Shown: positions 32,332 to 50,947 of the stretch, one piece after another
How positions within the stretch are numbered: the first letter of the stretch is position 1
How the letters are laid out: each line of letters starts with the position of its first letter
NCBI GenBank assembly: GCA_963664395.2
Contig: OY761159.2
Coordinates: forward strand, 800,001-864,000
Origin: Candidatus Binatia bacterium
Lineage (GTDB): Bacteria > Desulfobacterota > Binatia > Bin18
Reading direction: 5' to 3'
Length of the DNA: 64,000 bases
The notes under the pieces: generated by a model
What the model saw: only the letters and a program-made list of their open reading frames with translations
Database searches by the model: none
Told to the model about the DNA's origin: nothing
Position numbers and translations under genes: made by a program

Positions 32332-33426
32332 CTACCACGACAAACACCGCCGTACGGCACGGGGAATTTCCTCTAGCTCGCGTACCCGAACGACGGTTCC
32401 CCGACCGACTTGCGCCATGCGGGTGCACAGCGCTGGATCACCGCCAGGAAGCTCAATAACGTGTAAACAAGTGAATTGTCGGGCAAGGGAGAGAGGGTCG
32501 GGGCCAGTGTTCAGCCAGCCATCAGTGACCAGAATACCAATGTGGTTATGGACCTGTGTTCTGGTAAGCTCTTCCAGTCCTGTTTCTAGCCCGCAGGCCA
32601 CATCAGTACATCCTTCTGATTGCATGCCCAAGATTTCCTGGATGATTTCCTCTTGAACCATCCGCGTACCAACTGCCCGGATCACATACCCCTCATCCGA
32701 AAAAGCAACCGCCCCCCATTCATCTTCAGGCAGAAGATTCAGCAACAATGTGGCTGTCACCAGCGCTGCCGATACGGCTTTGGAGCCACGCATTGAGCGG
32801 CTCTTGTCCAGCATCACCATATAAGCCCGACGGCGAAGGGTGCGTTCCTTGACTACCAGATCTGCATAATTTGCCGGTCCTGAGTGGTGTAAGGCGAATG
32901 GCGAGGAGAGCATCCGATCCAAAGAGGCCTCAAGGTCAAGTTCATCGGAGTGAAATCGATACTGAGCAGATTCAAACTTCCCATCGCGGCGGAACCTCCT
33001 GGGGACTGACACACGCGCCATTTTTAAAAGGAGGCGGACTATACGGTCCAGGTGTTGCTCCCGGGTCTCTGCATCGAGATTATCCCAGGTCAGGGTGAAC
33101 AGTTTTTCATAGGAGTGATGATGTGAAAGACGATCGAGGACAAGACGATGCCGGCCCATGATCTGCGCAACGCGGGTGGGGGCCACCTCAGCCAGGGAAA
33201 CGACGTCATCAAGCGCACCCTGGCTGAGCAGCTCGTCCGCCTCACGATCAAGCGGGGCATCGAGGTAGTGGTGGTGATCCTCGGGAGTGCCCGGATGATG
33301 GGCAAGCAGCCTGTGCTCGCTCTCGCTCAGAATGCGTCGGGGGGCCGGCCGCTGGGCTACCCCCTCCTCGACTTCATCTTCCAGATGTAACGGTCCCGGA
33401 GCTATGAGGCCGATTGAGCTGTAGGC
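32332..33426 (-). CDS. vWA (MIDAS) domain protein, CoxE-like; reading frame opens at the MoxR A9 run
   Basis: DKSRS, GCTD, LVTDG MIDAS residues; frame open 80 codons upstream of the first GTG (33186), which has no SD. Confidence 0.82.
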   Translation of the reverse strand, partial: AYSSIGLIAPGPLHLEDEVEEGVAQRPAPRRILSESEHRLLAHHPGTPEDHHHYLDAPLDREADELLSQGALDDVVSLAEVAPTRVAQIMGRHRLVLDRLSHHHSYEKLFTLTWDNLDAETREQHLDRIVRLLLKMARVSVPRRFRRDGKFESAQYRFHSDELDLEASLDRMLSSPFALHHSGPANYADLVVKERTLRRRAYMVMLDKSRSMRGSKAVSAALVTATLLLNLLPEDEWGAVAFSDEGYVIRAVGTRMVQEEIIQEILGMQSEGCTDVACGLETGLEELTRTQVHNHIGILVTDGWLNTGPDPLSLARQFTCLHVIELPGGDPALCTRMAQVGRGTVVRVRELEEIPRAVRRCLSW

Positions 33427-34337
33427 TTTTTTTTTAACTCGTTGGGGTCACCTAATTCCCAAAACTCACCATCCGGAGTATGCCATTCTTCGGCCAGACT
33501 CTGCCATATCTCCTGAATAATTTCCTCTGGCGTGCGGCTTGTGGTTTCATTCAGCCAAATTTTGTCCCGGAGCGCCATTAATGCAGAAGAGAAAACCAGG
33601 TGGGTGCGTTCCGTCCCTGCTCCGTCCTGAGAGTCGAGCAGCTGGCAGGCAATAAGAACCAGATCAATGGCTCCTCGAACCGACGCACCCAGCCGAATAT
33701 CCTTGTGGGCTCTTGTGCGTCGGGTCATTTCCATTGCCGTCGCCACCAGGCCCAGGTTACCCTGGTCTGTGTGCCGTTTGACAATATCGACCTCTTCGTC
33801 TCGGTTCTGATAGTCCATCCGGATCGAGCAGAAACGATCTCTGAGCGCCCGGCTCACCCTGGCTGTACCCGCATCGTCATAGGGGTTTAACGCGGCAACC
33901 ACACGGAACTCGGGTTTCGCCACCACACAGCCAAGATAGGGGAGGGTCAGCTCACGCTCTGAGGTGGCAGTAATAAAGGCATTGGTGGTATCGTCCGGCA
34001 GCCGGTTAAATTCCTCCACATACAGAATCGCCCCTTCTTGCATGGCCTGCGTCAGAGGACCATACTCAAAATGTTCCGGCTTATATCCTTTTGACAGCAC
34101 TTGGGCAGGGTCGAAGTGACCGAGCAGCTTTGTCGAGGTCAAATCGCTATTCCCCGTCACCTGGATAAAAGGGATACCCATTTCCTGCACGACGCTTTTG
34201 AGGATGGTCGATTTTGAGGTACCAGGGGGGCCCTCAAGCATCACATGCCGCCCGCCTAACAAAGCCGCCACAATCATCCGCGTTTCGTGACGCCGGCCAA
34301 CGAAGTGATCTACCACACGAGAGTAAAGTTCTTGCAT
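33402..34337 (-). CDS. MoxR family AAA+ ATPase
   Basis: LEGPPGTSKS (Walker A), YVEEFNR (Walker B), AALNP, SRALRDRF, GASVRG. Confidence 0.92.
   Translation of the reverse strand: MQELYSRVVDHFVGRRHETRMIVAALLGGRHVMLEGPPGTSKSTILKSVVQEMGIPFIQVTGNSDLTSTKLLGHFDPAQVLSKGYKPEHFEYGPLTQAMQEGAILYVEEFNRLPDDTTNAFITATSERELTLPYLGCVVAKPEFRVVAALNPYDDAGTARVSRALRDRFCSIRMDYQNRDEEVDIVKRHTDQGNLGLVATAMEMTRRTRAHKDIRLGASVRGAIDLVLIACQLLDSQDGAGTERTHLVFSSALMALRDKIWLNETTSRTPEEIIQEIWQSLAEEWHTPDGEFWELGDPNELKKKPTAQSAS
33426..33453 (-). other. Candidate -1 frameshift/slippage signal (AGGTGA-12 nt-A9G)
   Basis: A_AAA_AAG in MoxR frame; -1 frame has TGA at 33448-33450 then stays open to 32332. Confidence 0.7.
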
Positions 34338-34462
34338 AACTCAGTCCAAATCACTGTGACACGCGTTCGGCCACTGGCGGTCAGTTGTTGGAGTCTTACT
34401 CCTCACTCATTGTTACGCGAGTTTGAAGCGAGTCCCCAGCTGCTGACCGCTGACCGCCTGCC

Positions 34463-35503
34463 TTATGCATTCGCCGGAGCACTATCACCGCGCGTGGGCA
34501 CGCCGACTAAGCGCCTGTACTCATCTCCGGTCGCGACCTCACGGCCCATGAGCTCGGCAATCGACTTGAACATGCGGAAATGATCGGCATTTGATTGGAT
34601 GAGGGCGTCCTGGTGAGGGTGTCGCCAGACAGTGTCTTCCATGCCAACCCGGACGTGAAGGCCTAAGATCATGGCTTGGATAGCCAGGTAGCTCGACGCC
34701 CGGCCAGCAGCACAGACAACAATTTCCGAGTCGCGGTCAATGTCATAGATCAGGTCAGTCAGGTGCATGATACCCCTGACCATCTGTCTGGGATTGTTCA
34801 TGGGACTGCCCCCGGGCAGCGTTGGGAGAATGATCCAAAAGTAAGGCTTTTCCAGTAAGCCGGTCTTAATCAAATAACGGTCCGCATTGTCCACATCGCC
34901 ATCAGAATATACTGCTATCTGCGGCTTGACGCCGAGCTCCTGACACAGCCGAGTTTTTTCTATGATGACATGTGGGGGTTTAGCAAAGAGGGTGTCTCCA
35001 CAGAAGGAAGCGGTTGTGTTAATGGGAGTGACCTCCAGCAAGCGGTCGCTCAGCACCGAGACCATGTTATCCCACTCTCCGTCCAGAAACGGCACCATGC
35101 AACCGTCATACACCGGGTCTGGAAACTCTTTGCGAACAGGGTCAATCACGCGATGGAAGAGTTCTGAGTCGAGGACGTTATAGCCTTCCTTATCACGCAC
35201 ATGCACATGGACGGTGGTGGCCCCGGCCTCAGCGCACTCCCGGGCCGAAGTAAGGATCTCATCCGGAGTGACGGGTAAGTTGGGGTTGTTTCGCTTGCTA
35301 TAAAAGGCGCCGTTAACCGTCTGTGAGATGACGACTTTATCCGGAATTTTCCACTTGGGCTGAACCTCAATATCCCCGTACTTAGAGGTAAAGGGATCAA
35401 CGACTTCTGGGAGCCCGTAGGGGTTCCAGATGGCTTTAAATTCTCCCTTCTTTTTCCACTCCTCAATATATTCCCAGTTGACTTTATCTTTCCTTTTGGC
35501 CAT
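34463..35503 (-). CDS. 3-keto-5-aminohexanoate cleavage (BKACE/DUF849) family protein
   Basis: NPNLPVTPDEI, AGA..VHVHVR, HVRVGMEDT. Confidence 0.9.
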   Translation of the reverse strand: MAKRKDKVNWEYIEEWKKKGEFKAIWNPYGLPEVVDPFTSKYGDIEVQPKWKIPDKVVISQTVNGAFYSKRNNPNLPVTPDEILTSARECAEAGATTVHVHVRDKEGYNVLDSELFHRVIDPVRKEFPDPVYDGCMVPFLDGEWDNMVSVLSDRLLEVTPINTTASFCGDTLFAKPPHVIIEKTRLCQELGVKPQIAVYSDGDVDNADRYLIKTGLLEKPYFWIILPTLPGGSPMNNPRQMVRGIMHLTDLIYDIDRDSEIVVCAAGRASSYLAIQAMILGLHVRVGMEDTVWRHPHQDALIQSNADHFRMFKSIAELMGREVATGDEYRRLVGVPTRGDSAPANA

Positions 35504-37926: not shown

Positions 37927-40344
37927 TCAGGCACCGGCAGGTTGTGGAGCCGCTACTCCCGCTGTGGCCTCCGCCGCGATCCGCTTGCCTAAAGTAACCA
38001 CAAAACGCGGCTTTATGAGCCGTACCAAAGCCGGAATGAAGATCAACGATCCAATAACGTGGAAAACCAGAACGGTACCAAGGAGGAAGGCCATCTCGGC
38101 CTGAAACTTCATGGGAAAGAGAATCCACAGCACAACACTCCCAATCAACGTGAACCCGGTAAAGAAGACTGCCCGCCCAGTCGTCGCGAGCGCCCGTCGG
38201 TTGGCCTCGTCAAAATCCTCGCACTTGCCATACTCCTCCACAATGCGGCTGAGCACGTAGTAGGCATAGTCGATGCCGATCCCAATCCCCACCGCCGCCA
38301 CGGGGAGAGAGTTAATATTCATATCGATGCCAGAGAAGTACATGATCGTCTCGATGATCGGCTGGGCAACAATAGGCGGCTGCATCACAATGAGTGCGCC
38401 GATAATCGACCGATACGTCAGAAGGCTGAGGGCGAAGATAGCGACAAGGATCAGCATGAGGTTGGTCTTATAAGAGGCTGCTATCTCCTCGTTCATTGCC
38501 GCCAGGACGCCGATCAGGCCGCCTGCCAGGCGAAAGTCGACCTTCTCCTGGGGGTTGGCGTCAATAAAATCCTTTGCGGAAGACAAGGCGTGTTTGGCCA
38601 TTCTGTTGGAATAGTCCTGGTAGTAGAGGGTCACAATGGCATTCTGATAGTCATGGCTATAGAGCCGTCCCACCTCATTGGACGCCATGAAGGTTGTGAC
38701 AACGAAAAACGTCGAGCCGATGTCCGAGCGGTTCAGGGGGAGCACCTCCCAGTTCGGATCGCCCTCATGAAACATACGGAACACCCGCTTGAGGAGTGAC
38801 GTAGAACTGTCCGAGCCGGTCGCTCCGCCTTCTTGCTCCATGTGCCACTGGAACTCTTCCATCGCCCGCAATACGTCCTTATTCTTGATCGCTTCCTTGA
38901 CCTTCCCCTCTACCACCACCATCATCTGACTGGCGCCCAAGAAATTGTCGTTAACCTTGCGCGAAGCCACGTTGTACGGATGGTCCGGGTACATCAGCGC
39001 ATCCTCAATCGAAACGGTACTCACCTGCAGCTGCCGGGAGAAATAAATTCCCAGCGTCAGTAACAGCACCATCACAGTCACGCTCACGTAACGCCTCCCG
39101 GAATCCTGGCTCATCCACACCATGAAGCGAGTCACGCTCATATAAAAGCGATCGCTAAGATAGCTGCCGGCCTTAGGATCTTGGCGGGGCGGCGGAATAT
39201 AGGAGAGCAGAACCGGGTGCAGGGTGATCACACTGACCACAATGGTAACGATCCAAAAGCTCGCCACAAAGGCGATGTTTTGAATAACGGGGATCCGGGC
39301 CACCGCCAGCGTGAAAATGGCCAGGGCGTCTGAAGCGATGGACACCATGGCCGGGTCAAACAGGCTCACGTAAGAGGCAATAATGGCCTGGTCTTTATTG
39401 CCCAAGCGGGCATATTCTTCATGATAGCGCTCCATGGACTGCACCGAGTGCGAGAGCGCTCGGGCCGTAATCAGCACGAATACCACCATCACCAGCGGAT
39501 CGAGCTTAAAGCCAGCCACACCCGCAAAGCCAATCGCCCACAGCGCGCTCAAGAGCCCAGAAAAGAGGGGCACCAGGACGCCTATCAGCGTGTGGAAATA
39601 CGTGTACAAAAGCACGCACATGACGACGACAGTGACGCTAATAACGAGCAGGAGGTGAGGGCGATAGTGGTGCACCCAGGTATACAGCATGGGATAGCCG
39701 GTGATGTGAAGACGGGTATTGTCGTCCTCGTATGTCTCTCGCAGTTCATTGGTCCGCGCCCAGAGATAATCGAAATTCGTGCCCTCTTCCCACAGCCCGG
39801 CTGTGATGAGGACTGCCTTGTCGTCCATGGACACAAGCGATCCCCGCATGCCGCTGGACGTGTAGACCTTCTCGCGGAGGAATTGCAAATCCTCTTCCGA
39901 ATCGGGCAACTCCATGACAATGGGCAGGGTGGAAATGCCGCCAGCAGTGACGGTGATGTTCTTGACACTCGGGTGTGTCAGTGACGAGACCTGAAAAGGA
40001 TTGACGCCTTTGGTATCCATGATGGCTCGGGTAATGCCGTCGATTTTCTTGACCGTTTCGATCGTATAGATATCCCCTTCCTTCACCTCTAGAACGATCA
40101 TCATCACGTTGGCTGTGCCGAACATGTGGCGATACTCTTGATACAGCTGAATATAGGGATGGTTGGGGGGATAGAGCTCGAAAAAGTCCGTGTGGATGCG
40201 AGTATACTTGACCGCCAGATACCCGAACAGCGTAGTGCTCAGCAGGATGAATACGAGTGTCCCGATCCGGTGACGAAGGAGAAAATAGAGGTATTGTTGC
40301 GTCAGGTAGCGGCGGTCAAATTTTGCCCACACAGTCGAGAGCAT
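37927..40344 (-). CDS. MMPL/RND family transporter
   Basis: 805 aa, two repeats of large loop plus TM bundle, GIGIGIDY. Confidence 0.9.
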   Translation of the reverse strand: MLSTVWAKFDRRYLTQQYLYFLLRHRIGTLVFILLSTTLFGYLAVKYTRIHTDFFELYPPNHPYIQLYQEYRHMFGTANVMMIVLEVKEGDIYTIETVKKIDGITRAIMDTKGVNPFQVSSLTHPSVKNITVTAGGISTLPIVMELPDSEEDLQFLREKVYTSSGMRGSLVSMDDKAVLITAGLWEEGTNFDYLWARTNELRETYEDDNTRLHITGYPMLYTWVHHYRPHLLLVISVTVVVMCVLLYTYFHTLIGVLVPLFSGLLSALWAIGFAGVAGFKLDPLVMVVFVLITARALSHSVQSMERYHEEYARLGNKDQAIIASYVSLFDPAMVSIASDALAIFTLAVARIPVIQNIAFVASFWIVTIVVSVITLHPVLLSYIPPPRQDPKAGSYLSDRFYMSVTRFMVWMSQDSGRRYVSVTVMVLLLTLGIYFSRQLQVSTVSIEDALMYPDHPYNVASRKVNDNFLGASQMMVVVEGKVKEAIKNKDVLRAMEEFQWHMEQEGGATGSDSSTSLLKRVFRMFHEGDPNWEVLPLNRSDIGSTFFVVTTFMASNEVGRLYSHDYQNAIVTLYYQDYSNRMAKHALSSAKDFIDANPQEKVDFRLAGGLIGVLAAMNEEIAASYKTNLMLILVAIFALSLLTYRSIIGALIVMQPPIVAQPIIETIMYFSGIDMNINSLPVAAVGIGIGIDYAYYVLSRIVEEYGKCEDFDEANRRALATTGRAVFFTGFTLIGSVVLWILFPMKFQAEMAFLLGTVLVFHVIGSLIFIPALVRLIKPRFVVTLGKRIAAEATAGVAAPQPAGA

Positions 40345-40356
40345 GCTTCCTCCCTC

Positions 40357-41697
40357 TTAACGTTCGTCAGGCCTCCGGATCCAAACGCCCTCATCCGGCG
40401 AGCTGCCACTGACAAGGAAAAGCCCATAGGCACCAACCAGAAAAGAGTGATTTCCAGGGACCACGGATAGCCGTCTTATCCAGGACAGGCGGTACTCCGG
40501 ATCCAGCTCTACCTGTTCCCATCCCATTCCGCCATCCGTAGAGACCAACACGGTGCCTCGATCTCCCACAATCCATCCCCGGTCTCCTATAACATGCACC
40601 CCATACAGGGCTCGCTGAACATCGATGGGTTGAAACTCCCACTGGCGCCCCCCATCCTGGGTATACGCAATGGTCCCATCCTGACCGACCGCCCAGCCTC
40701 GGAGCGGAGAAACAAAGCAAAGACCGTACACGCTGGGCGAGGGAACCTCAACACCAAACGCCTCGAGTTCTTCTGCGCTGAACTCTGCGTCTACGGTTTC
40801 CTGTTCATGCATGGGATGGCGAGGAAGTACCGCCCTCTCCCAGGTCTTGCCTGCATCTTGGGTGCGCAGCACCAACCCGTGCTCTCCGCCGATCCAGCCA
40901 TGCGCCTGGTCGAGAAAAAAGACGGCGTTCAGCACCGTGTCTTCCCGGACCCGCACGTCTCTCACACCACTCTGGCGGATCTCCGCGATGAGCAAATCGT
41001 CCAGCAGTTGTCCCGCCCTGGCTACGATCTCCCCAGTCCTAGGATCAACCACATCCTGCAGGGCCACCGCCTGGATGACCCGTCCCCGTTCCTCCAGCCG
41101 CAGTGACAACGACCGATCAACCCAATGCCTTCCCCCGTCTTGGGTGAAAAGGATAGCGCCCAAATGCCCAACCACCCAGCCCGTATTCCGGTCGATAAAT
41201 GCGACGTCGAAGAGTGGCAGGTTGCCAAGATGCGACGTCACGACCCCTTTCTTCAATCGGGGCCCGATTGTCTCAGTGGCGGTAGAGAGGTCTGCTCGCG
41301 CTTCAAAGCCACTCTGTTGCTGTTTCCAGGTTGATCCGCCGTCTTGGGTGTGGAGGATCACGCCTCCTTCCCCAACCACCCAGCCGTGCGTGCTATCGGC
41401 AAAATTGACCGCGGTCAATAAGGTGCTGACTCCGCTCTGCTGCGCTTCCCAACCCTTTCCCCTGTCAGTGGTATGGAAAATGCCCCCTAGACGACCGACT
41501 GCCCAGCCCTCGTCTTTATCGAGAAAGAACACCCCGTGCAGATTAAGCGCTGGAAGGCGGGCCAGTTGCTCTTGAGCCGTGGCTGGGGAGAGCAGCAATC
41601 CCTCGCTCCCGCCGAAGAGGAAAAAAAATGCAATAAAAACTAAGAGTATTGACTTTCTTTGACGAGACAAAGCAGTACCTCTCCCAAAGGTCACCAC
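40357..41697 (-). CDS. YCF48-related beta-propeller protein with inserted module
   Basis: Repeated GWxVGxxGxIxxTxDGGxxW blades; signal-like N-terminus. Confidence 0.88.
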   Translation of the reverse strand: MVTFGRGTALSRQRKSILLVFIAFFFLFGGSEGLLLSPATAQEQLARLPALNLHGVFFLDKDEGWAVGRLGGIFHTTDRGKGWEAQQSGVSTLLTAVNFADSTHGWVVGEGGVILHTQDGGSTWKQQQSGFEARADLSTATETIGPRLKKGVVTSHLGNLPLFDVAFIDRNTGWVVGHLGAILFTQDGGRHWVDRSLSLRLEERGRVIQAVALQDVVDPRTGEIVARAGQLLDDLLIAEIRQSGVRDVRVREDTVLNAVFFLDQAHGWIGGEHGLVLRTQDAGKTWERAVLPRHPMHEQETVDAEFSAEELEAFGVEVPSPSVYGLCFVSPLRGWAVGQDGTIAYTQDGGRQWEFQPIDVQRALYGVHVIGDRGWIVGDRGTVLVSTDGGMGWEQVELDPEYRLSWIRRLSVVPGNHSFLVGAYGLFLVSGSSPDEGVWIRRPDER

Positions 41698-41769: not shown

Positions 41770-43281
41770 CTATCTCCCAAGCTCCAGAAATCTCGCTAGG
41801 TCAAACTGTTGAGCGGGAACGAGGCCGACTGGAACGTAGTGCGTGTCCAGGTGTTGGCCCTTGCCTGCGGCCAGGCCGCCGTCGGCCATAATCACCGTCC
41901 CTCGATTAACCTTGTCATCAACAGCAATGGCTGCCCGGGCGTCACTACAGACGTTCAGCACCCCCTCCCGCATGAAGCGGGTGTATTCGATCCACAGCAG
42001 GATCGTCCGCCAGTACTCACCAGCCCGGTTGTACGCCTGCTTCCAGCCCGGGATAAACAGGTGCGGCTCAAACTCATAGATTTGCTTCCCGTAGTTGTAA
42101 TAGGGGTCCTTCGGAGTGGCCTCGAGAACGTACATGGGGACAGGAACCCACAGCATGTTCACCGTCCACCACGCTGCATATTTTTTTGAATCATCCTGAT
42201 AGCCAAAATGCAGGTCCTGGTACGGCGGCATAAAGGAACCGGGGACTTTTTTGTACGTATAGTGCGTCGACGGCAGGCCCTGATTGGTAATACGGGCCAC
42301 ATAGTCGTCGGGCGCTTGGCCTACCTTGCGAGACACGGGCAGCAGCGACGTTTTGACACCCAAAAACTTCCAATCCATCATCTCGACCTTGCCGGCGTAA
42401 ATGGGCTCAGCATCGTCTAAGGCGAACTCGGTGCCCAATATCCCTTCAGAACGGTTTGCAGCTGTGAGCCGCCGCATCCGTCGGACAGCCGGGGAGTATA
42501 TCCACACGCTGTCGTTCTTTGTGGGGTCGGCCCAGCGCCAGCTGAGCTGGGCCACGCCAAAGACGTCGGACGGGGCCAGGAAGTAGAAGATTTCCTGAAA
42601 AATGACCGGCCGTTTGATCTGAATGGGTGCGCGGCGAAACTCGATGAGTTGCCGGATCACATGCAGGTCCAAAAGACGCTCATAACCGCCGTCGCGCGGA
42701 CCGGTAAACAGCTTGGCCCCAGGGTCATCGACCTCGTTACACGTTGAGTTGGCTGAAGCCTGGGCATTCCAGATGATCTTGGCCGCTATCTTGCTATTTT
42801 CCTCTGTGAAGTCGAGCTCAGGATACGGGTAGCCCAGAGGCATGGGAAAAGGCCGCTCCCCAGAGGCATCGACGATGCCATTAATATCATCTATGCGGTA
42901 CTTGCCGATGTTATTTTTGGTGGACTCGAAGAACGTCGGGTCCCAAATCCTATTCATGAGGTCGGGCGGATCGAACTGCCCGATCGTAAAGATGTAATCG
43001 CCGTTCTTGGTCCGCTGGTACACCGACTCGGGCACCAGATCCTTAATCAGGTCGGCGTTCTCCGCGGTGATCTGTAGGCCCGGGCTCAGGCTGTGCTTTT
43101 CCATCATCTCCGCCTGGTTCGGTAGCCTCGGCGCATCCGTTGTGCCCCAGCCGAACTCATACGAGGGTGGACAACAGCTGCCCTTTTCATGTTGAACGGC
43201 ATACTCCTCGGCACTGGCCCAGCCGAACAGCAGACTGCTCAGCAGAGCACCTCTCAAGCAATGTTGCATCCATGCGTACAT
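41770..43281 (-). CDS. DUF1329 family periplasmic (LolA-like) protein
   Basis: VWIYSPAVRRMRRL, GTEFALDD, YVLEATPKDPYYNYGK, YNRAGEYWR; AAGGAG RBS. Confidence 0.88.
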   Translation of the reverse strand: MYAWMQHCLRGALLSSLLFGWASAEEYAVQHEKGSCCPPSYEFGWGTTDAPRLPNQAEMMEKHSLSPGLQITAENADLIKDLVPESVYQRTKNGDYIFTIGQFDPPDLMNRIWDPTFFESTKNNIGKYRIDDINGIVDASGERPFPMPLGYPYPELDFTEENSKIAAKIIWNAQASANSTCNEVDDPGAKLFTGPRDGGYERLLDLHVIRQLIEFRRAPIQIKRPVIFQEIFYFLAPSDVFGVAQLSWRWADPTKNDSVWIYSPAVRRMRRLTAANRSEGILGTEFALDDAEPIYAGKVEMMDWKFLGVKTSLLPVSRKVGQAPDDYVARITNQGLPSTHYTYKKVPGSFMPPYQDLHFGYQDDSKKYAAWWTVNMLWVPVPMYVLEATPKDPYYNYGKQIYEFEPHLFIPGWKQAYNRAGEYWRTILLWIEYTRFMREGVLNVCSDARAAIAVDDKVNRGTVIMADGGLAAGKGQHLDTHYVPVGLVPAQQFDLARFLELGR

Positions 43282-43320
43282 ACAATTCTCCTTTCTCAAT
43301 CAGATCAGATTTCAATCAGA

Positions 43321-44961
43321 TCAGAAGAGTAAATAGTCAATCCGAAAGGCGATATTATCCCAGTCCTTTGTCAGGCCAACACCGGTGGGACCGTCAAAAC
43401 GCCCTTCGATATAATTATATTCTATGCGGAAACGCCACGGGTCATTGATAAAGGTGAGCTGAGGCTGTATGAGCCACGACCCGCTCCAGTCGTAGATCAC
43501 GACGAACTGGGGCATCACCTGAGCCAAACCAAAGAAGAATGAGGCATTATACAGCGTATTGGCTATGAAGGTGCTATAATGAGCGTTTCTGTACAGGTTA
43601 GCGAAGCGATTTTTGTTTCCCCCATTATGCTTGCTCAGAGAAAGCGGAATTCTGAGCCCGCTCACGCTTCCCTGGATGCTGCGGTGGAAGTGTTGCGCCG
43701 AAAGAAAGAAGGTGTTGGCAGGATTCAGAGACCGGAACCACTGGGTATGGTCAAGGCCGAACGCCCATTGGATCACGTCCCGCTTGGGGATCCGATCTCC
43801 CACGGCGAGGTTCTCGTTCTCCTTGAAGAATGCCCGGCCAAAAGAGCCCGCTATTTCCGCACGAAAGACGCTGTAGGTGAGGTTCTTTAAGATGGGCACC
43901 TGAAACTGGGAAACAGGGGCAGAGGCCGTAGCACCGACAAGCTGGTAGTTATTGTTATTCTTGATTTTGAGGACCAGGTCTTCTCGATTACTCGTCTCTT
44001 CGAGATTGATTGTCGTCCCAATGTCCTCGGCATTATAGGTTGTGAGCCAATTCAGGGTAACGGTGGTATCTCCTATGGTTGACAGCAACCGTACCCCTGC
44101 CCGGCTGTCTCCCAGGTTTCTGTCTGGACGAGGATTCTGGGTACCGATGAAGTCACAGCCGGCCCTATCGGCACACGCGTCAAGAGACGCATTAAACGTC
44201 GGCGCGATGGTTGTATTGAGGGCTCCAGGCGTGACATCCCATGGCTGGCCCCCGACCCCTTCTAGGGGGTTGCGGTTATCGGGCGCAATGAAAGCTTGGA
44301 GGGTGAGGTTGTAGATGTTCCAGTCGGGAAATTCCGCTAACCCCAGCGAGAATCGGACCATAGTGAGTGGCCGGCGTCGCTCGTCCAGGGGAAGCAGAAA
44401 TCCGCCAAAGCCATTATCGAGGGGGTTAATCTGGTCGATCACGCGAAAGATGTCGGTTTCTCCCCAGGAAAGGTTTTGTCGCCCGGCCCGAATGTTGAAC
44501 CGGCCGCCGAGGTGCGACGTCTCCCCGTATAATTCGAAAATCTGAAAGCGGCTTGCGTTCTGCAGATCATAAGGTCTGAGATTGCGGTAACCGGCTGGTC
44601 CGTAATCGTAGACAGCGTCGTATTCAAAGCGAGGATTGAACAAGAACCGCGCCTCATGGATACTGAGCGCTTCCTGAATGAGGCTGCCGCCCGGGACACG
44701 GTCGAACCACGGAGTCACCGTAACCCGGATCGTGGGATCTAAGAAGAAGCGGTGCTGGAACATATTCCCGGCTGATGCTTTCGTGTTGGCTCCCCGCGAG
44801 TCGTTGAGACGCATCCTATATTGGGTATAAAACGTCGACGTGAAAATCATCGTTTGGGCATCGTCAAGATAGAGCGCACTCGCAGGCCGGACACCGAGGA
44901 AACCTACGACAAGCCACCCCACAAGACCGAGCAACGCATACCATTTTCTCCCTCTACGCAT
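43321..44961 (-). CDS. DUF1302 family outer-membrane protein
   Basis: Signal peptide, RAGRQNLSWGETD.FR..DQINPLD, C-terminal beta-strand ending in F. Confidence 0.82.
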   Translation of the reverse strand: MRRGRKWYALLGLVGWLVVGFLGVRPASALYLDDAQTMIFTSTFYTQYRMRLNDSRGANTKASAGNMFQHRFFLDPTIRVTVTPWFDRVPGGSLIQEALSIHEARFLFNPRFEYDAVYDYGPAGYRNLRPYDLQNASRFQIFELYGETSHLGGRFNIRAGRQNLSWGETDIFRVIDQINPLDNGFGGFLLPLDERRRPLTMVRFSLGLAEFPDWNIYNLTLQAFIAPDNRNPLEGVGGQPWDVTPGALNTTIAPTFNASLDACADRAGCDFIGTQNPRPDRNLGDSRAGVRLLSTIGDTTVTLNWLTTYNAEDIGTTINLEETSNREDLVLKIKNNNNYQLVGATASAPVSQFQVPILKNLTYSVFRAEIAGSFGRAFFKENENLAVGDRIPKRDVIQWAFGLDHTQWFRSLNPANTFFLSAQHFHRSIQGSVSGLRIPLSLSKHNGGNKNRFANLYRNAHYSTFIANTLYNASFFFGLAQVMPQFVVIYDWSGSWLIQPQLTFINDPWRFRIEYNYIEGRFDGPTGVGLTKDWDNIAFRIDYLLF

Positions 44962-44992
44962 TTTTCTCCCTCCTTCCTGAGAAATCCTTCGA

Positions 44993-46756
44993 TTAACTAG
45001 GCTGACCGTGACGCAGCAGTTTGCCTGGAGTGGCCCCAGTACACTTCCCATCCTCAAAGATCGTCTGCCCGTTGACCAAGATGTGCCGATACCCCTCAGC
45101 CCGCTGGACCCGCCGCCACTCGCCAGCCGGCAGATCGTAGACAACCTCGTCGGGTAAGGCCTCCAGCTTGTCCAGATCGTAGATGATAATATCGGCCGCC
45201 AACCCCTCACGTAGCGTGCCCCGATCCTTAAAACCTCCTGCCCAGGCCATCAGCCCGCTCAAGCGAAAATGGGCCTCCTCCAGGGAGAGGAGTCCTCCAT
45301 CCCGCGCCATCCAGGCCAGCACCTCCGTGGGGTAGATGCCCGCAGTGAGGAATTTGACGTGCGCGCCCCCATCCGACAGCCCAGTCAGAATATAGGGCGA
45401 ATTCATCATCTGCCGGTAGTTCTCCACCTCGGCGCCGACCGCTGGTCCGGTCCATTCCGTCCTCAGATTATCGGCCACCGACAGATCCAGCATGGCATCA
45501 ATAATGTGTTTGTTCTCCTGCTCGGCAATCTGCCCGACCGATAACCCCTCATACTGTGCCTTGAGATCTTCCTGACGCACTTTTCTGGCGATGTACCGAG
45601 GAAGGTCCCCAAAGATAAAATCGCTGGCTTTGGTACTCGTCTCGTATTCCTCCCGCATCGCCTGGCGGATTTTGGGGTCAGACATCTTAGCCTTTTTCTC
45701 CTCCAGGGTGCCCACGGTGGCTGCCCGCCAGGCCGGACTATCGTCAAACAGGTTCCAGTCCTCCAACGTCATCCGCGCCGGCATGCGTGCCGTCAAACCA
45801 TGTCCGAGCACCTGAATCCCCCTGGCATTGAACTCGGTGATCTGCTGCAGCTGTGCCTGTTGGACTTCAAGCAGACGGTCATTGACCACGACGGAAGCGA
45901 ATACCACCGGCCGGCCACTCAGCTCAGCCAGCTGCGCACAGAAGTCGAGGTCGCGCGATGTTCCAAACTTGCCACCACCCTCTTCCGCCGCAGCGGTGGC
46001 GTGCATCAGCTCGATGAAGCCGCCTTCAGTCCTCTCCCCTAACGCCCGCGCCATCGTCAAATAGAACTCATCGGGCAGGAGATCCGTAATCATCGGGGTG
46101 CCATCATAATCCCGCTGGAACGAGCCTCTGCCCTCAGGGCTTTCGGGAATCAGGCGTTGGGTTGACCAGCCCACGGCGCCCGCATCCATCGCGCCATGGA
46201 AGTGCTGCAAAATCTCTCCCATCTCCTGCTCGTTTGGAAAGCGCTCCTTCGCCTCGTCAAACCCGCCCATCACATAGGCCACGGCTGGCCCAATCGGAAA
46301 CATATGCGAGATGTTGATCCCCAGCGGCAGGCGCTCCAGACGATCCATGTATTGCGGGAAGGTCTCCCAGTCGACCTTCATAGATGCCCGCATCGACTCC
46401 ACGGGGATCGCCTCGTTGCGTGCCAAGGACAGCATAGCCCGCTCCACATCCTTGGCACGCACCGGGGCAAACCCAAATCCACAGTTGCCGATAGTCACCG
46501 AGGTCACGCCATGCCAGCTGCCCATGGTACAGTAGGGATCCCAGTGCACCTGGGCATCATAGTGGGTATGTAGGTCAATGACGCCTGGGGCCACAATGAG
46601 TCCCGTGGCATCGATCACCTGGGCCGCGTCACTGGTCTTCAGCCGACCGGTTTTGGCGACCTTGCCGTTCTTGATGCCGAGGTCGGCGCGGTAACGCGGT
46701 ACCCGGGTTCCATCGATTATGGTGCCGCCTTTGATCAGCGTATCGAACTCTGTCAT
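44993..46756 (-). CDS. Amidohydrolase, N-acyl-D-amino acid deacylase-like
   Basis: APGVIDLHTHYDAQ, GNCGFG, SDGGAH, DRGTLREG.AAD. Confidence 0.9.
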   Translation of the reverse strand: MTEFDTLIKGGTIIDGTRVPRYRADLGIKNGKVAKTGRLKTSDAAQVIDATGLIVAPGVIDLHTHYDAQVHWDPYCTMGSWHGVTSVTIGNCGFGFAPVRAKDVERAMLSLARNEAIPVESMRASMKVDWETFPQYMDRLERLPLGINISHMFPIGPAVAYVMGGFDEAKERFPNEQEMGEILQHFHGAMDAGAVGWSTQRLIPESPEGRGSFQRDYDGTPMITDLLPDEFYLTMARALGERTEGGFIELMHATAAAEEGGGKFGTSRDLDFCAQLAELSGRPVVFASVVVNDRLLEVQQAQLQQITEFNARGIQVLGHGLTARMPARMTLEDWNLFDDSPAWRAATVGTLEEKKAKMSDPKIRQAMREEYETSTKASDFIFGDLPRYIARKVRQEDLKAQYEGLSVGQIAEQENKHIIDAMLDLSVADNLRTEWTGPAVGAEVENYRQMMNSPYILTGLSDGGAHVKFLTAGIYPTEVLAWMARDGGLLSLEEAHFRLSGLMAWAGGFKDRGTLREGLAADIIIYDLDKLEALPDEVVYDLPAGEWRRVQRAEGYRHILVNGQTIFEDGKCTGATPGKLLRHGQPS

Positions 46757-46806
46757 AAGCCCCTCCTGTTGGTTACAGAGTTAACTGATTACCCTATCTT
46801 AATAGT

Positions 46807-46838
46807 ACCTGAGTAAAAAATTGAACGTTCACTCAGGT
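46807..46838. promoter_or_regulatory. Candidate operator upstream of the amidohydrolase-DUF1302 operon
   Basis: ACCTGAGT...ACTCAGGT inverted repeat enclosing the palindrome TGAACGTTCA. Confidence 0.4.
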
Positions 46839-47077
46839 GATCTCCTTGACTTTGCCATAAACGAACTATCTATGTCAACACTGAGTCCGCCAGAGCGCAT
46901 TGCGCTCGTCGTGGCGAGAGGAACAAAAAAGTAGCGTGCGCTGTGCGCACGACAAATTCCGCAAATTGCGTTGCGATTCCAAGGGTTTACAGTTTATTGG
47001 GAGTAAATCCGAAAATTTTGTTCATGAGCAGCGGGAACGTAGCGGAAGCGAAGAATCTCATACCAAGGCTGCTCTCT

Positions 47078-47608
47078 TTAGCTCCTTGCCGCGAAAAACA
47101 GCTTGCGCACCTCCCAGCGGATCACCGATCCCACTAGGACAACCCGTGGACCATCGTCCACCTGGGCATACACACTGGTACGGCCTGGATTGTGACTACC
47201 AAGTGCCAGGGTACGTGAGTTCCCCTCCTCAGAGAGGAGTGAGATACTGGTGGCTGGACGATCGAGGCCATACTCCGGAAGCCTTGCTAATCCATCCGCA
47301 ACTTCCCCGATTTCCATAAGCCCCTCAAGGCTTTGTAGAAAATCTGTCATCCCTCCCGTACGGAGTTCCTGCATCTCGGGCTCTACTTTCCACCCCTCTG
47401 GCGTGCGTTGGCAAACAAGACTCTCTCCCTCGTACACAACTTCTACTCTCACCACCTCCCGCGGGTTAAACTTCAGCACCCGGCGCTGGCGGGCCTCTTG
47501 TCTGGCAGCCTCGTTAGTCCCAAGAGTGGTGAGATAGGTATAGCTCCCAAGGACCAGCACTCCTGCCGCAAGCAGGATAACACGACGCGCTTCGGCCGAA
47601 AGCGTCAT
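47078..47608 (-). CDS. DUF4340 domain protein
   Basis: N-terminal TM, EYGLDRP, TLALGSHNP...VYA; ATGA overlap with GldG-like gene. Confidence 0.8.
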   Translation of the reverse strand: MTLSAEARRVILLAAGVLVLGSYTYLTTLGTNEAARQEARQRRVLKFNPREVVRVEVVYEGESLVCQRTPEGWKVEPEMQELRTGGMTDFLQSLEGLMEIGEVADGLARLPEYGLDRPATSISLLSEEGNSRTLALGSHNPGRTSVYAQVDDGPRVVLVGSVIRWEVRKLFFAARS

Positions 47609-49008
47609 CCCCACCGCCTCCGATACAAGAACACACTCGTTCCCACCACAAAGATCAGACCAGGCTCTAGGACAACCATGATCCAAAAGAACATCCGCGC
47701 CTGGGCCTGCGTAATATACAGGCTCTGCACTGCGGTCCGCCCTGCGGCGGGCACATCCTCTGCGCGCCCAGTCGCCACCAGTTCCTCCCTGCCTACAAGC
47801 CACCCCACCGTAGTCATAAAAAAATCCATGTTGCCCGGTATCCGAGCATAGAAGTTCGTCACAAAGTCCGAATCTCCTAAAACAACCACTTTCCCCTCTC
47901 CCTCCTCCGCGCCACCAACTGTAGCCACGGCCGCCACGGGCACCGGTCCGCGTGTATCTTCTCCAGCCCGATACTGGAGATCCCCCTGCCTTATCCGCTC
48001 CCGACTGCGCTGGGTCCAGCTGTCCGGGCTGGAAAAGGCAAAGGCTTGAGCCTTTCCCCCCTGTACCTCTACCGGCCGCACCAGCGGCATCAGTACTGGC
48101 CCCTTAAGTTCTCTGGGGAACACCTCTTCGACAGAGTTGGGAATAACCGGCATCAACGGATCTCCCCCAGTCAGCCGGGCTTGCGTGTCCACCACTACGC
48201 CATCCTCTAACACAAAACCAAAACGGGCCAGATGCTGGCAGAGTTCTGGTACTGTGTACGGGTCGATCATAAAAATTGCTCTTCCGCCAGAAGTAAGATA
48301 GGCCGAGAAGGGTTCTAATTCATCAGGCAAGAATTCCTCTCGAGGACCGCCCACCACTACTAAGTGAGCATCCGCGGGTATCTGCGCGTTTCGGTAGAGC
48401 GACAGAGGGAGGACTCGGTAGTTCTCTGTTTCCAGCATCATTTTTAGCAACCCAAACCCCGTCCGCCCCTGTCGGTCCCTGAGGCTTCTCTCCCCATGCC
48501 CAGACACAAAGTAGACGGTTTTGACCGGCTGGCTTAAGCGCAAAAGAGCATTCAGAACCTCCGGCTGAGCAGTGTTAGAGAGAATGATCCGGTCCCCTTT
48601 GGTCTCCACAACCGCCTCCCCATAGTGGGAGACTTCATACTCCTGCGCCAGTCCCGGCGTCCGATCGAGATCAAACAGCCGGTAGCTGAAAAGAGGATTC
48701 TCTTGAGCCATCAGACTCAAAAGGTCGTCATGCTTGTCCCGCTCCCCCCGCTGGTAGAAGACCGTGATCCGCATCTCTCGGTCCAGGGCCTGCACCACCT
48801 TTTGCATCAGGGGCGAGAGACTGTATTCCTTGGTCGGGGTGAGGTCAAAGCGCAGGTTTGTACGCTCCGAAAGGGTAATTAACAAAACGGCAATAACAAG
48901 GATGAGAACGATTTCCACCCCAAGAAGGCAGGAACGCCTGACAGACTCACGGCCAAGCCCCTCGGAAAGATAGGCCAAGCCCCTCGGGTATACTCTTAGC
49001 ATAGTCAT
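47605..49008 (-). CDS. GldG-like ABC transporter auxiliary component
   Basis: RFDLTPTKEYSLS, VYFVSGHGE, VVVLGDSDF, C-terminal TM. Confidence 0.88.
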   Translation of the reverse strand: MTMLRVYPRGLAYLSEGLGRESVRRSCLLGVEIVLILVIAVLLITLSERTNLRFDLTPTKEYSLSPLMQKVVQALDREMRITVFYQRGERDKHDDLLSLMAQENPLFSYRLFDLDRTPGLAQEYEVSHYGEAVVETKGDRIILSNTAQPEVLNALLRLSQPVKTVYFVSGHGERSLRDRQGRTGFGLLKMMLETENYRVLPLSLYRNAQIPADAHLVVVGGPREEFLPDELEPFSAYLTSGGRAIFMIDPYTVPELCQHLARFGFVLEDGVVVDTQARLTGGDPLMPVIPNSVEEVFPRELKGPVLMPLVRPVEVQGGKAQAFAFSSPDSWTQRSRERIRQGDLQYRAGEDTRGPVPVAAVATVGGAEEGEGKVVVLGDSDFVTNFYARIPGNMDFFMTTVGWLVGREELVATGRAEDVPAAGRTAVQSLYITQAQARMFFWIMVVLEPGLIFVVGTSVFLYRRRWG

Positions 49009-49047
49009 CCTTAATAGCAGGTGTTTGAGTAGACCCAGCTCAACGAC

Positions 49048-49791
49048 TCACCGCATCCCCCTCCACTTCCGTGACTCAAGCGACTGCACGGTGAAATAGA
49101 GAAACACCAGCGTCATCATCACAAAGAACGTCATGTCATTGGTGTTGATCACGCCTTTGGAAAAATCCTCAAAACGGTCAAACAACGACAGGCGGCTCAC
49201 GACCGCAATCAGCTCGGGTCCGAACGCCTCCTCGTTCCAGTTGACAAACCAGAGCAAAACCAGCACACCATAGGTGGAAAAGGCGCTCACCACCTGGTTT
49301 TCTGTCAGTGAAGAGAGAAAGGTCCCACAGGCAATAAACGCCGCGCTCAAAAGCAGCACTCCCAGATATCCCACCAGTGGCGGCCCCCAGGCAAGCGGAT
49401 AGACTGAGGCCAGTAGTAGCGGATAGACGAGGGTGCAGGCAACCATTATCCCAAAGATAAAAAAGCAACTAAGAAATTTTCCAAGGATGATAGAGGAGTC
49501 CCTGAGCGGATAGGTCCCCAGCAGCTCGATGGTCCCCAGCTTCTTTTCCTCAGCAAAAAGCCGCATAGTTAGCAGCGGAATAATGAGCAGAGTCACAAAG
49601 CGTAAGTCCAGGAAATAAAACTGCCAAAGCGTCGAGGTAGTACTCGAAAAGGTGCCAAAGAGGTCAGAAAAGATCAGGTCAGTATAAAAAAAATACCCGG
49701 ACAGCACAAGAAATGCCGCCGTGAGGGCATACGCGAGAAAGGACCCAAAGTAGACAAGGAGCTCCTTTTTGAAAACACACCACCACTTCAT
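49048..49791 (-). CDS. ABC-2 permease, GldF-like
   Basis: KKELLVYFGS, PLLTMRLFAEEKKLGTIELL, SSLTENQVV. Confidence 0.9.
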   Translation of the reverse strand: MKWWCVFKKELLVYFGSFLAYALTAAFLVLSGYFFYTDLIFSDLFGTFSSTTSTLWQFYFLDLRFVTLLIIPLLTMRLFAEEKKLGTIELLGTYPLRDSSIILGKFLSCFFIFGIMVACTLVYPLLLASVYPLAWGPPLVGYLGVLLLSAAFIACGTFLSSLTENQVVSAFSTYGVLVLLWFVNWNEEAFGPELIAVVSRLSLFDRFEDFSKGVINTNDMTFFVMMTLVFLYFTVQSLESRKWRGMR

Positions 49792-49835
49792 GCCAACTCC
49801 TCCCATCGACTAGAAATTGGCCGCCTTGTCCAACT

Positions 49836-50810
49836 TCACTCTGCTCGGCCTCCGTCTGATTCATGGATTAGTTTCAGATACAGGTCCTCCAGCGTGGGCT
49901 CCAAACGGCGCATCTCGATCAGTCCCCAGCCGTGTTGCAGAACCGTCCGACTCACCTCCCGACCGATTTCCGCCCCATCATATTCCAGGACCAACGACGC
50001 CGTTTTTCGTTCTTCTTGGTCTCTGCCTCCTATCCTCTGACTTTCATCTTTCTCCACCCGTATCACGCCTGGCAGCTGGGAGAACATATTCATCGCCTCA
50101 TCCCTTGGCCCATCAACTTCCACCCGTATCCGGCGGGTACTCTCGAGCTGGGCCTGTAATGCATCCAGCGGCTCTGACGCCAGAATCCGACCGCGGTTGA
50201 TGAGGATGACACGGTCACACACCGTGCTCACCTCAGGCAAGATATGGGTGGATAGGATAACGGTTCGCTCTTCTCCCAGCTCCCGGATCAGATGACGGAT
50301 CTCGACGACTTGCTCTGGGTCCAAACCGATCGTGGGCTCGTCTAAAATCAAGACCTCAGGCTCGTGGATCAGCGTCTGGGCGATACCCACCCGCTGGCGA
50401 AAGCCCTTGGAAAGATGGCCGATAATGCGGTTTTGCACGTCTTGTAAACCACAGTTCTCAATAACCCGCTCAACTTCTTTTGTCCGTCGCCCTCGTGGGA
50501 CATCCTTGGCTTCAGCCGCAAAACGGAGAAAGGCCCGCACCGATAGGTCCAGATAGACCGACGCCTTTTCTGGGAAATACCCAAGCATCCGTCTCACCTC
50601 AAGTGAATGAGAAATGACATCATACCCTCCGACCCTGACTTTTCCAGACATGGGTGGAAAGAAGCAAGCCAGAATGCGCATCACCGTGCTCTTACCAGCG
50701 CCATTCGGGCCAAGAAAACCGACCACCTCACCCCGGGCCACCTGAAAAGAAGCCTGATCAACAGCAAGAACAGACCCGAAACGCTTGCTGACGTTATCAA
50801 CCTCAATCAT
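49836..50810 (-). CDS. ABC transporter ATP-binding protein, GldA-like
   Basis: GPNGAGKST, LSKGFRQR, LILDEPT, STHIL. Confidence 0.93.
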   Translation of the reverse strand: MIEVDNVSKRFGSVLAVDQASFQVARGEVVGFLGPNGAGKSTVMRILACFFPPMSGKVRVGGYDVISHSLEVRRMLGYFPEKASVYLDLSVRAFLRFAAEAKDVPRGRRTKEVERVIENCGLQDVQNRIIGHLSKGFRQRVGIAQTLIHEPEVLILDEPTIGLDPEQVVEIRHLIRELGEERTVILSTHILPEVSTVCDRVILINRGRILASEPLDALQAQLESTRRIRVEVDGPRDEAMNMFSQLPGVIRVEKDESQRIGGRDQEERKTASLVLEYDGAEIGREVSRTVLQHGWGLIEMRRLEPTLEDLYLKLIHESDGGRAE

Positions 50811-50947
50811 AATTCCCCTATGATGCAGCGCTAACATGCCTAATACAAGAGAGGGAGGCTTCTCTTCCTTACTCCAGGCAGAAAATGAGGGTACGTCACC
50901 CGCGTCATACTCCGTGATAGGGAAAGCGGACGGTTCACTCTATGGAC

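Follow-up and report, generated by a model that had tools for sequence, protein, structure and literature searches.

A probable RNA polymerase-type β-β′ module inserted in a probably exported YCF48-like propeller of a Candidatus Binatia bacterium

The propeller gene and its inserted segment

The DNA analyzed here is a 64,000-nucleotide stretch (the window) from a Candidatus Binatia bacterium (GenBank assembly GCA_963664395.2, contig OY761159.2, positions 800,001 to 864,000), and all positions below are those of the window. Its minus strand carries a gene for a YCF48-like β-propeller protein, which stands in an envelope transport operon. The original prediction, made from the sequence alone, had noted a peptide in this protein that resembled the β and β′ subunits of RNA polymerase (RNAP), and had proposed that an RNAP-type domain of about 50 residues was recruited into the exported propeller. 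We examined this insert with profile searches, AlphaFold2 (AF2) models, Foldseek comparisons and surveys of homologous genes. Alignment A1, which is used throughout, comprised 25 rows: 14 members of the clade to which the protein belongs and 11 shorter YCF48-like relatives. The gene and its parts are listed below with the basis of each assignment (ORF, open reading frame; HMM, hidden Markov model; pLDDT, predicted local distance difference test; BBM2, β-β′ module 2).

40357..41697, minus: YCF48-like seven-bladed β-propeller gene, 446 residues, host of the insert (ORF, Pfam, AF2, Foldseek)
41575..41697, minus: probable signal peptide, residues 1-41 (translation, low pLDDT)
41224..41310, minus: low-confidence loop between blades 2 and 3, residues ~130-158 (pLDDT, alignment A1)
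41110..41217, minus: blade 3, residues 161-196 (strands E162-167, E173-177 and E182-185; repeat motif in A1)
40939..41109, minus: whole inserted segment, residues 197-253 (alignment A1, 43 clade slices, insert HMM)
40945..41067, minus: putative BBM2 core, residues ~211-251, aligning with RNAP β′/β (HMM, PDB, Foldseek)
40828..40938, minus: blade 4, residues 254-290 (strands E256-261, E267-271, E275-279 and E287-290)
40735..40827, minus: second inter-blade insertion, between blades 4 and 5, residues 291-321, with a short helix (A1, AF2)

Pfam family PF14870 (PSII_BNR/YCF48) matched the propeller with an E-value of 9.6e-42 (143.7 bits against a gathering cut-off of 27). The NCBIfam Ycf48 equivalog PRK13684 scored 154.4 bits, below its cut-off of 326, and we therefore refer to the protein as YCF48-like and not as the photosystem II (PSII) factor Ycf48. 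The AF2 model of the whole protein, built on an alignment of 43 clade members, had a pLDDT of 80.5 and a predicted TM-score (pTM) of 0.79 and showed seven four-stranded blades; its best Foldseek matches in the PDB were YCF48 crystal structures (5ojr_A, E 6.5e-15; TMt 0.70-0.73). As read from the translation, residues 1-41 consist of a basic n-region, a hydrophobic core, ILLVFIAFFFLFGG, and A-T-A preceding Q42. Judged from this signal peptide, which was identified by eye, the propeller is probably exported and periplasmic.

The reverse complement of 40945-41097 encodes exactly the peptide quoted in the original prediction, as residues 201-251. Alignment A1 places the insertion slightly beyond these limits, at residues ~197-253 (57 residues). 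It was found in all 14 clade members of A1 and was absent from 10 of the 11 short relatives, the eleventh (P0109) having only a short unrelated stretch at this position. In the full-length AF2 model the insert lies between the end of blade 3 (~196) and the start of blade 4 (254-256), so that the two regular blades said to flank it are blades 3 and 4. Its elements follow one another as a strand, a short helix, three short strands, a helix at 234-242 and a strand at 249-251, with pLDDT values of 70-88 over the block. The insert thus occupies the connection between blade 3, at its outer strand, and blade 4, at its inner strand. In the usual propeller topology a connection of this kind emerges on the face that bears the D-A and B-C loops, where the insert would accordingly lie.

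Two further extra stretches were seen in the same protein. The loop at residues ~130-158 (41224-41310, minus) holds about 25 extra residues, has a pLDDT below 50 over residues 133-155, and occurs in 3 of the 25 rows of A1, namely this protein (P0003), P0004 (92% identical) and P0006, which has a longer form. The second insertion, at residues 291-321, contains a helix (H308-313, pLDDT 58-69) with a conserved E-E-L-x-A-F-G pattern. Parts of it are common to some of the short relatives, and it is therefore older or more widespread than the insert between blades 3 and 4.

Resemblance of the insert to RNA polymerase modules

BBM2 is a small hairpin-helix-strand module that occurs once in RNAP β′ and, in one or more copies, in lineage-specific surface inserts of β. 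In the insert, the part that aligns with RNAP begins with a β-hairpin, whose turn reads D-P-x-T-G-E, and continues through a helix to a closing V-R-V-R strand. An insert-only HMM (56 positions) was searched against all 54,571 stop-to-stop six-frame ORFs of at least 50 residues in the bacterium's own genome. Apart from the propeller itself (E 2.6e-23), it retrieved rpoB (E 3.2e-6) and rpoC (E 8.1e-6), and the next match was at E 0.99; the resemblance noted in the original prediction is thus far beyond chance. The rpoB matches formed two adjacent stretches (ORF residues 300-333 and 341-383), an arrangement that fits a tandem BBM2 pair in the β lobe insert. HMM positions 14-54 aligned with residues 824-864 of the rpoC ORF; this match scored 25.2 bits, whereas the two copies in rpoB reached 17.8 and 10.4. 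The comparison with the genome's own rpoC, which had been suggested with the original prediction, gave 17 identical residues of 46 (37%), and that with the rpoB module gave 11 of 44. Because identity is only at this level, the insert is not a recent copy of either gene. The insert is homologous to the RNAP modules, but the divergence is old.

Searches of wider databases were in accord with these findings. When the 51-residue peptide was scanned alone against NCBIfam, all four rows returned were rpoC-type models, the best being TIGR02386 (E 3.1e-4, model positions 803-849). A phmmer search of the single insert against the PDB (E<=10) returned RNAP β′ or β in 11 of 13 rows, including the E. coli β lobe/β-i4 chains 3lti_A and 7egs_A (E 0.47 each). 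A profile of the whole protein clade matched RNAP β′ in the PDB (E 3.6e-4 and 5.2e-4), and the matched part, profile positions 170-233, coincides exactly with the insert; the NCBIfam and PDB searches found no RNAP similarity in the host propeller outside the insert. Profile A3, built from the insert only (29 sequences, 61 positions), matched RNAP in 19 of 21 PDB rows, led by 8i23_D (residues 849-886, E 9.9e-7) and 8syi_Z (E 4.5e-6), with the two non-RNAP rows at E 0.21 and 0.64. A search of the ESM Atlas with residues 197-253 gave no usable match.

Against 1.84 billion representative proteins, A3 gave 141 matches at E<=1e-3, which were sorted by comparison with the genome's own rpoB, rpoC and propeller. 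RNAP subunits or their fragments accounted for 121 of them (59 nearer rpoB and 62 nearer rpoC; 11 of at least 1,000 residues), 3 belonged to the propeller clade, and 17 were neither. The best RNAP matches reached E 2.2e-11 and 1.1e-10. In the PDB searches with the insert and in the comparison with the genome's own genes, the alignments to RNAP were 38-46 residues long and took in the closing strand as well as the helix. Of ten of the best matches outside the clade, one had a source name, an Atribacteria β′ fragment, and no donor lineage emerged. A possible likeness to HD-GYP N-terminal sequences was set aside, as the pattern considered for these had no D-P-x-T-G-E turn.

Of the 17 remaining matches, all but P0191, P0202 and P0244 were inspected, by Pfam scan (10) or by reading (8, with 4 in common). 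Most of those inspected fit the turn motif alone, being 19-residue tandem repeats, a 25-fold repeat protein, or large Ig/RTX or DUF7507 surface proteins. Five of them (P0128, P0134, P0142, P0171 and P0187) have tandem 19-residue repeats of the form R-Q-K-V-x-D-P-E-T-G-E-x-I-S-K-x-A-L-A, which agree with the BBM2 profile at the hairpin turn alone, and three (P0226, P0255 and P0259) look like diverged rpoB fragments. P0178 is, among the inspected matches, the sole further plausible case of a genuine non-RNAP context. This 377-residue membrane protein matched A3 in three stretches (whole-library E 5.4e-5). Its N-terminal hydrophobic helix is followed by three full-length BBM2-like modules in tandem, and after a further hydrophobic helix comes an ATP-synthase B/B′ domain (PF00430, residues 225-354). 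Its relatives P0344, P0345 and P0346 include 314-residue forms, probably with two tandem modules. With a b-type helix oriented as usual, the modules of P0178 would be extracytoplasmic.

The predicted fold pointed in the same direction. Residues 195-256 were modeled alone with AF2 from an alignment that contained no RNAP sequence, and the model (pLDDT 73.9, pTM 0.54) had the same order of secondary-structure elements as the insert in the full-length model. All 50 of the listed Foldseek matches of this model in the PDB were RNAP β′ or β chains (TMq 0.59-0.74). Over 45 columns, the model fitted the E. coli β2-β-i4 crystal structure 3LTI with a root-mean-square deviation (rmsd) of 1.3 A (TMq 0.66); for 7egs_A, a structure of the lobe domain, the rmsd was 1.4 A. 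By prediction, then, the insert has the hairpin, helix and closing strand of the BBM2 fold.

We conclude that residues 197-253 very likely form a single BBM2 domain within a periplasmic YCF48-like propeller; the recruitment of an RNAP-type module into the propeller of a transport operon, as originally proposed, is supported by both the sequence evidence and the predicted fold. Some results weigh against this conclusion. A Pfam scan of the 51-residue insert alone found no family at E<=1. No Foldseek match of the insert model in the PDB reached E<=1e-3 (best 2.5e-3), so that the support from the fold lies in the uniformity of the matches, the TM-scores and the rmsd values. The insert model is moderately confident only, and its match to RNAP is not fully independent of the sequence match, because AlphaFold2 was trained on RNAP structures.

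Genomic setting, distribution and assembly

The propeller gene is flanked by genes of three families with which it shares the strand, and a further group of minus-strand genes lies upstream.

49836-50837, minus: ABC ATPase
49048-49806, minus: ABC-2 permease
47605-49008, minus: ABC_transp_aux protein
44993-46756, minus: Amidohydro_3 protein
43321..45210, minus: DUF1302 (outer-membrane barrel family) ORF (Pfam DUF1302, E 2.4e-14)
41770..43299, minus: DUF1329/LolA-like gene, immediately upstream of the propeller gene (DUF1329 E 4.4e-22, LolA_like E 5.4e-15)
37927..40344, minus: MMPL/RND-type inner-membrane transporter gene (Pfam MMPL, E 5e-38)

The four families DUF1302, DUF1329, YCF48 and MMPL thus stand together in that order on the minus strand, and the MMPL gene begins 12 nt past the propeller stop codon. 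The upstream ABC and Amidohydro_3 genes (44993-50837) may form one long transcription unit with this four-gene cluster. As listed, the DUF1302 ORF has 218 nt in common with the Amidohydro_3 ORF upstream of it (44993..46756). From residue 84 of the DUF1302 ORF the translation resembles a signal peptide, and the true start is therefore probably the Met at 44961, which lies 31 nt past the amidohydrolase stop. Downstream of the operon, at 32332-35503 (minus), are a BKACE (beta-keto acid cleavage enzyme) gene and then a typical MoxR-VWA pair, encoding an AAA ATPase of the MoxR type and a protein with a VWA domain.

The system is present in the genome in many versions: ORF matches at E<=1e-5 numbered 5 for YCF48-like, 9 for MMPL, 13 for DUF1329 and 9 for DUF1302 proteins, a large expansion of paralogs. 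One of the five YCF48-like paralogs carries the insert, and four of the five adjoin an MMPL gene. The ortholog group of the neighboring DUF1329 protein matches that of the propeller and is likewise sharply bounded, with 23 proteins at 42-92% identity followed by a drop to 33% or less. The DUF1329 proteins encoded beside insert-bearing propellers contain extra segments at residues 318-323 and 330-344 (window ~42268-42348, minus), which were absent from the 6 non-cognate DUF1329 proteins compared (7 versus 6 sequences, less than 33% identical); as a weak lead from the alignment, these segments might be a counterpart surface for the insert. Co-folding of the mature propeller (residues 49-446, A2) with the mature DUF1329 protein (residues 31-509, A4) gave an ipSAE of 0.00 in both runs, which were made without controls and speak neither for nor against a contact.

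The survey of homologs showed that the insert marks a clade. It was present in 46 of 120 listed homologs at E<1e-5, and the other 74 were without it (best weak score E 0.44). All 43 aligned clade members, which are 48-93% identical to the query, retained it, with no deletion variant. Among 80 loci from species-representative genomes, seven carried the insert (L003-L009, E 1e-23 to 1e-30) and 73 did not (best E 2.5). The seven loci come from Candidatus Binatia or 'delta-proteobacterial' metagenome-assembled genomes (MAGs) and from one contig filed otherwise, and the two closest to the query (92% and 88% identity) are Binatia. The order DUF1302-DUF1329-propeller-MMPL was found in five of them (L003, L004, L006, L007 and L009) and is consistent with the short contigs of L005 and L008. 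Insert-less Binatia loci (L028, L037, L062, L067 and L079) had the order propeller-MMPL-DUF1329. The clade is patchily distributed: of 121 genomes sampled from the class, 3 had an ortholog at E<=1e-60, this one included, and among 10 further members of the genus a single genome had one.

Two particulars of these loci may be added. The L007 contig (CAMBFS010000060.1) is filed as a Klebsiella pneumoniae MAG; it holds a Binatia-type cluster with the insert, 51% identical to the query, and is probably mis-binned or mislabelled. In L006 (8242-10853) and L007 (8167-10777), about 2.6 kb of extra DNA lies between the insert-bearing propeller and the MMPL gene, a gap of 12 nt in the window.

Over the 903 pairs of clade members, mean pairwise identity was 0.58 for the insert, 0.71 and 0.66 for the two sets of blades, and 0.52 for the second insertion. 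The insert is under constraint, although not more so than the propeller core.

The original prediction had raised the possibility of a misassembly, and sequencing runs of other studies argue against it. Several studies had runs in which the propeller gene was almost complete, with 0.99 of the sampled words present. Contigs of 9,015 bp from runs X2 and X4 cover 40200-41228 with one differing letter, and a 636-bp contig from the metatranscriptome run X10 covers 40530-41165 with three. The X2, X4 and X10 contigs bridge both junctions of the insert, and a piece from X12 bridges the 40945 side only. Some parts of the gene are uncovered in X10 and X12, to which no significance attaches. As contigs from three independent studies span both junctions, the insert is not a product of misassembly. 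The X10 contig suggests that the propeller gene is transcribed, with the qualification that an RNA library may hold DNA.

The letters that differ were also noted. At position 40376, where the propeller gene nears its 3′ end, X2, X4 and X10 have T and the window has C. Run X10 differs in addition at 40849, 40861 and 40864 and is one letter short at 40480 in a low-depth contig. These differences look like strain differences or contig errors.

Possible roles of the module and comparison with known systems

By analogy with RNAP, the BBM2 module may act in the propeller as an independently folded knob that adds protein-contact surface. Such a knob would touch a partner belonging to the same envelope transport system, either the periplasmic domain of the MMPL protein, the DUF1329 protein or the membrane face, and the surface it adds would be located at the junction of the propeller that faces the client. 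Docking on the MMPL or DUF1329 partner had been suggested tentatively in the original prediction, and the present results neither favor nor oppose it. The contact could help to keep the parts of this system apart from the four other paralogous propeller systems of the cell. We regard this partner-contact role as plausible, somewhat short of probable. A broader proposal is more doubtful. It takes BBM2 as a portable domain for protein contacts, which entered the extracytoplasmic portions of membrane machines on at least two occasions (the propeller clade and the P0178 family) and serves in the propeller as a specificity determinant. Where a genome holds many paralogous systems, such a determinant would match a given propeller to the transporter set that belongs to it.

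Several points count against a contact role or against its details. The cognate MMPL proteins have no internal clade-specific indel and differ at their termini only (8 insert-associated sequences versus 17 others). The propeller face of the insert was deduced from strand order and not from coordinates. In local alignments of blades 3-4 on solved Ycf48 chains the repeats slipped out of register and did not fix the blade number, so the correspondence of the junction with that of Ycf48 is by blade counting only. In addition, the insert is less conserved than the blades, and the window copy has Ala for Pro210 (93% conserved) and Val for Ala211 (95%).

The last two points also favor a rather unlikely alternative, namely that the insert is a true BBM2 without a partner, either a tolerated decoration or a brace that stabilizes the blade 3-4 junction. 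The patchy occurrence of the ortholog and the tolerance of the same propeller for insertions at residues 130-158 and 291-321 would fit this explanation as well. A mere decoration is harder to reconcile with the retention of the insert in every clade member down to 48% identity and with its higher conservation relative to the second insertion, and BBM2 inserts in RNAP do serve as docking surfaces. Somewhat less likely again is a module that contacts the inner membrane or the transported hydrophobic substrate, serving where blades 3 and 4 meet as a lid or as a foot on the membrane. For eukaryotic Ycf48, an insertion located at this junction was proposed to stabilize membrane binding (PMC10403576), and the operon family has been linked to export or uptake of lipid-like compounds (10.1101/072470; 10.1101/2020.07.04.188060). 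Against this explanation, charged residues are abundant in the module, and a hydrophobic stretch is lacking. To our knowledge, BBM2 in RNAP is not known as a lipid binder.

Two further explanations concern the identity of the insert. Its resemblance to RNAP could be due to convergence on a common small hairpin-helix motif and not to common descent: the strongest conserved element is the short D-P-x-T-G-E turn, and this turn alone draws in unrelated 19-residue repeat proteins such as P0128 and P0134. We consider this very improbable, given that the RNAP alignments include the helix and final strand, that modules of both β and β′ are matched at their known positions, that whole-library E-values go down to 2.2e-11, and that the predicted fold fits 3LTI at 1.3 A. 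An assembly chimera or frame artefact can be practically dismissed. No point in its support was found; the insert occurs in homologs from several independent sources and in seven loci of other genomes, the contigs of three studies cross both junctions with at most three differing letters, and the propeller ORF is uninterrupted.

With common descent as the preferred explanation, BBM2 is a module that is also reused outside transcription, a known domain in a new host and a new compartment. A conserved periplasmic copy shows that BBM2 folds, and is under selection, in a setting other than transcription, and supports the view that a stock of small general-purpose domains supplied the inserts of RNAP. 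The insert also provides a small, deletable handle on how the propeller engages its partners. No BBM2 outside RNAP was found reported in full-text searches, whose scope did not extend to Iyer et al. 2004 and the supplements of PMC2939025, so that an earlier mention is possible.

The closest known counterparts of the insert are the BBM2 copies of RNAP. E. coli β-i4 (= β-Si1) comprises two tandem BBM2 domains, which were predicted by Iyer et al. and confirmed by 3LTI (PMC2939025), and Firmicute β-i5 contains two BBM2 folds (bioRxiv 10.1101/2022.01.17.476619). These share with the insert the sequence pattern and the predicted fold. They are likewise small, independently folding units in a surface loop of a larger domain, and are lineage-specific in their host protein (PMC2939025; 10.1101/2022.01.17.476619). 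The insert differs from them in that its host is a periplasmic β-propeller and not an RNAP subunit, and in that it is a single copy and not a tandem pair. Because the compartment is extracytoplasmic, as deduced from the signal peptide, no RNAP partner would be relevant to it. The best-scoring relative is the BBM2-like segment of RNAP β′ (TIGR02386 ~803-849; ~840-890 in 8i23_D and 6wvj_D), which aligns with the insert through the final V-x-V-R strand; the β′ copy is part of the conserved enzyme core, whereas the propeller insert is accessory.

Among propellers, Ycf48 has seven blades, as here, and in eukaryotes bears an insertion proposed to stabilize membrane binding (PMC10403576), at the same inter-blade junction by blade count. 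The propeller of the window is encoded with an RND/MMPL transporter and not with photosystem genes, and its insertion is a folded 57-residue domain and not a 19-residue loop.

The operon as a whole belongs to a known type. COG4447 BNR/YCF48-like proteins occur in DUF1302-DUF1329-BNR-RND clusters of Shewanella, Kangiella and Pseudomonas (PP_2018 with PP_2019), which hold the same four families. In these three genera the genes are cofit (10.1101/072470), and the Shewanella cluster has the same gene order as the window (10.1101/072470). The four families have been proposed to move an envelope or lipid-like component (10.1101/072470; 10.1101/2020.07.04.188060), and AlphaFold co-folding of the P. 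putida proteins suggested a DUF1329-BNR-RND trimer and a DUF1302-DUF1329 pair (PMC10866462; PMC13499233). Judged by the short relatives in A1, of which 10 of 11 lack it, the BBM2 insert would be the difference from the COG4447 systems. The insert thus defines an easily recognized subfamily of the known DUF1302/DUF1329/BNR/RND envelope systems.

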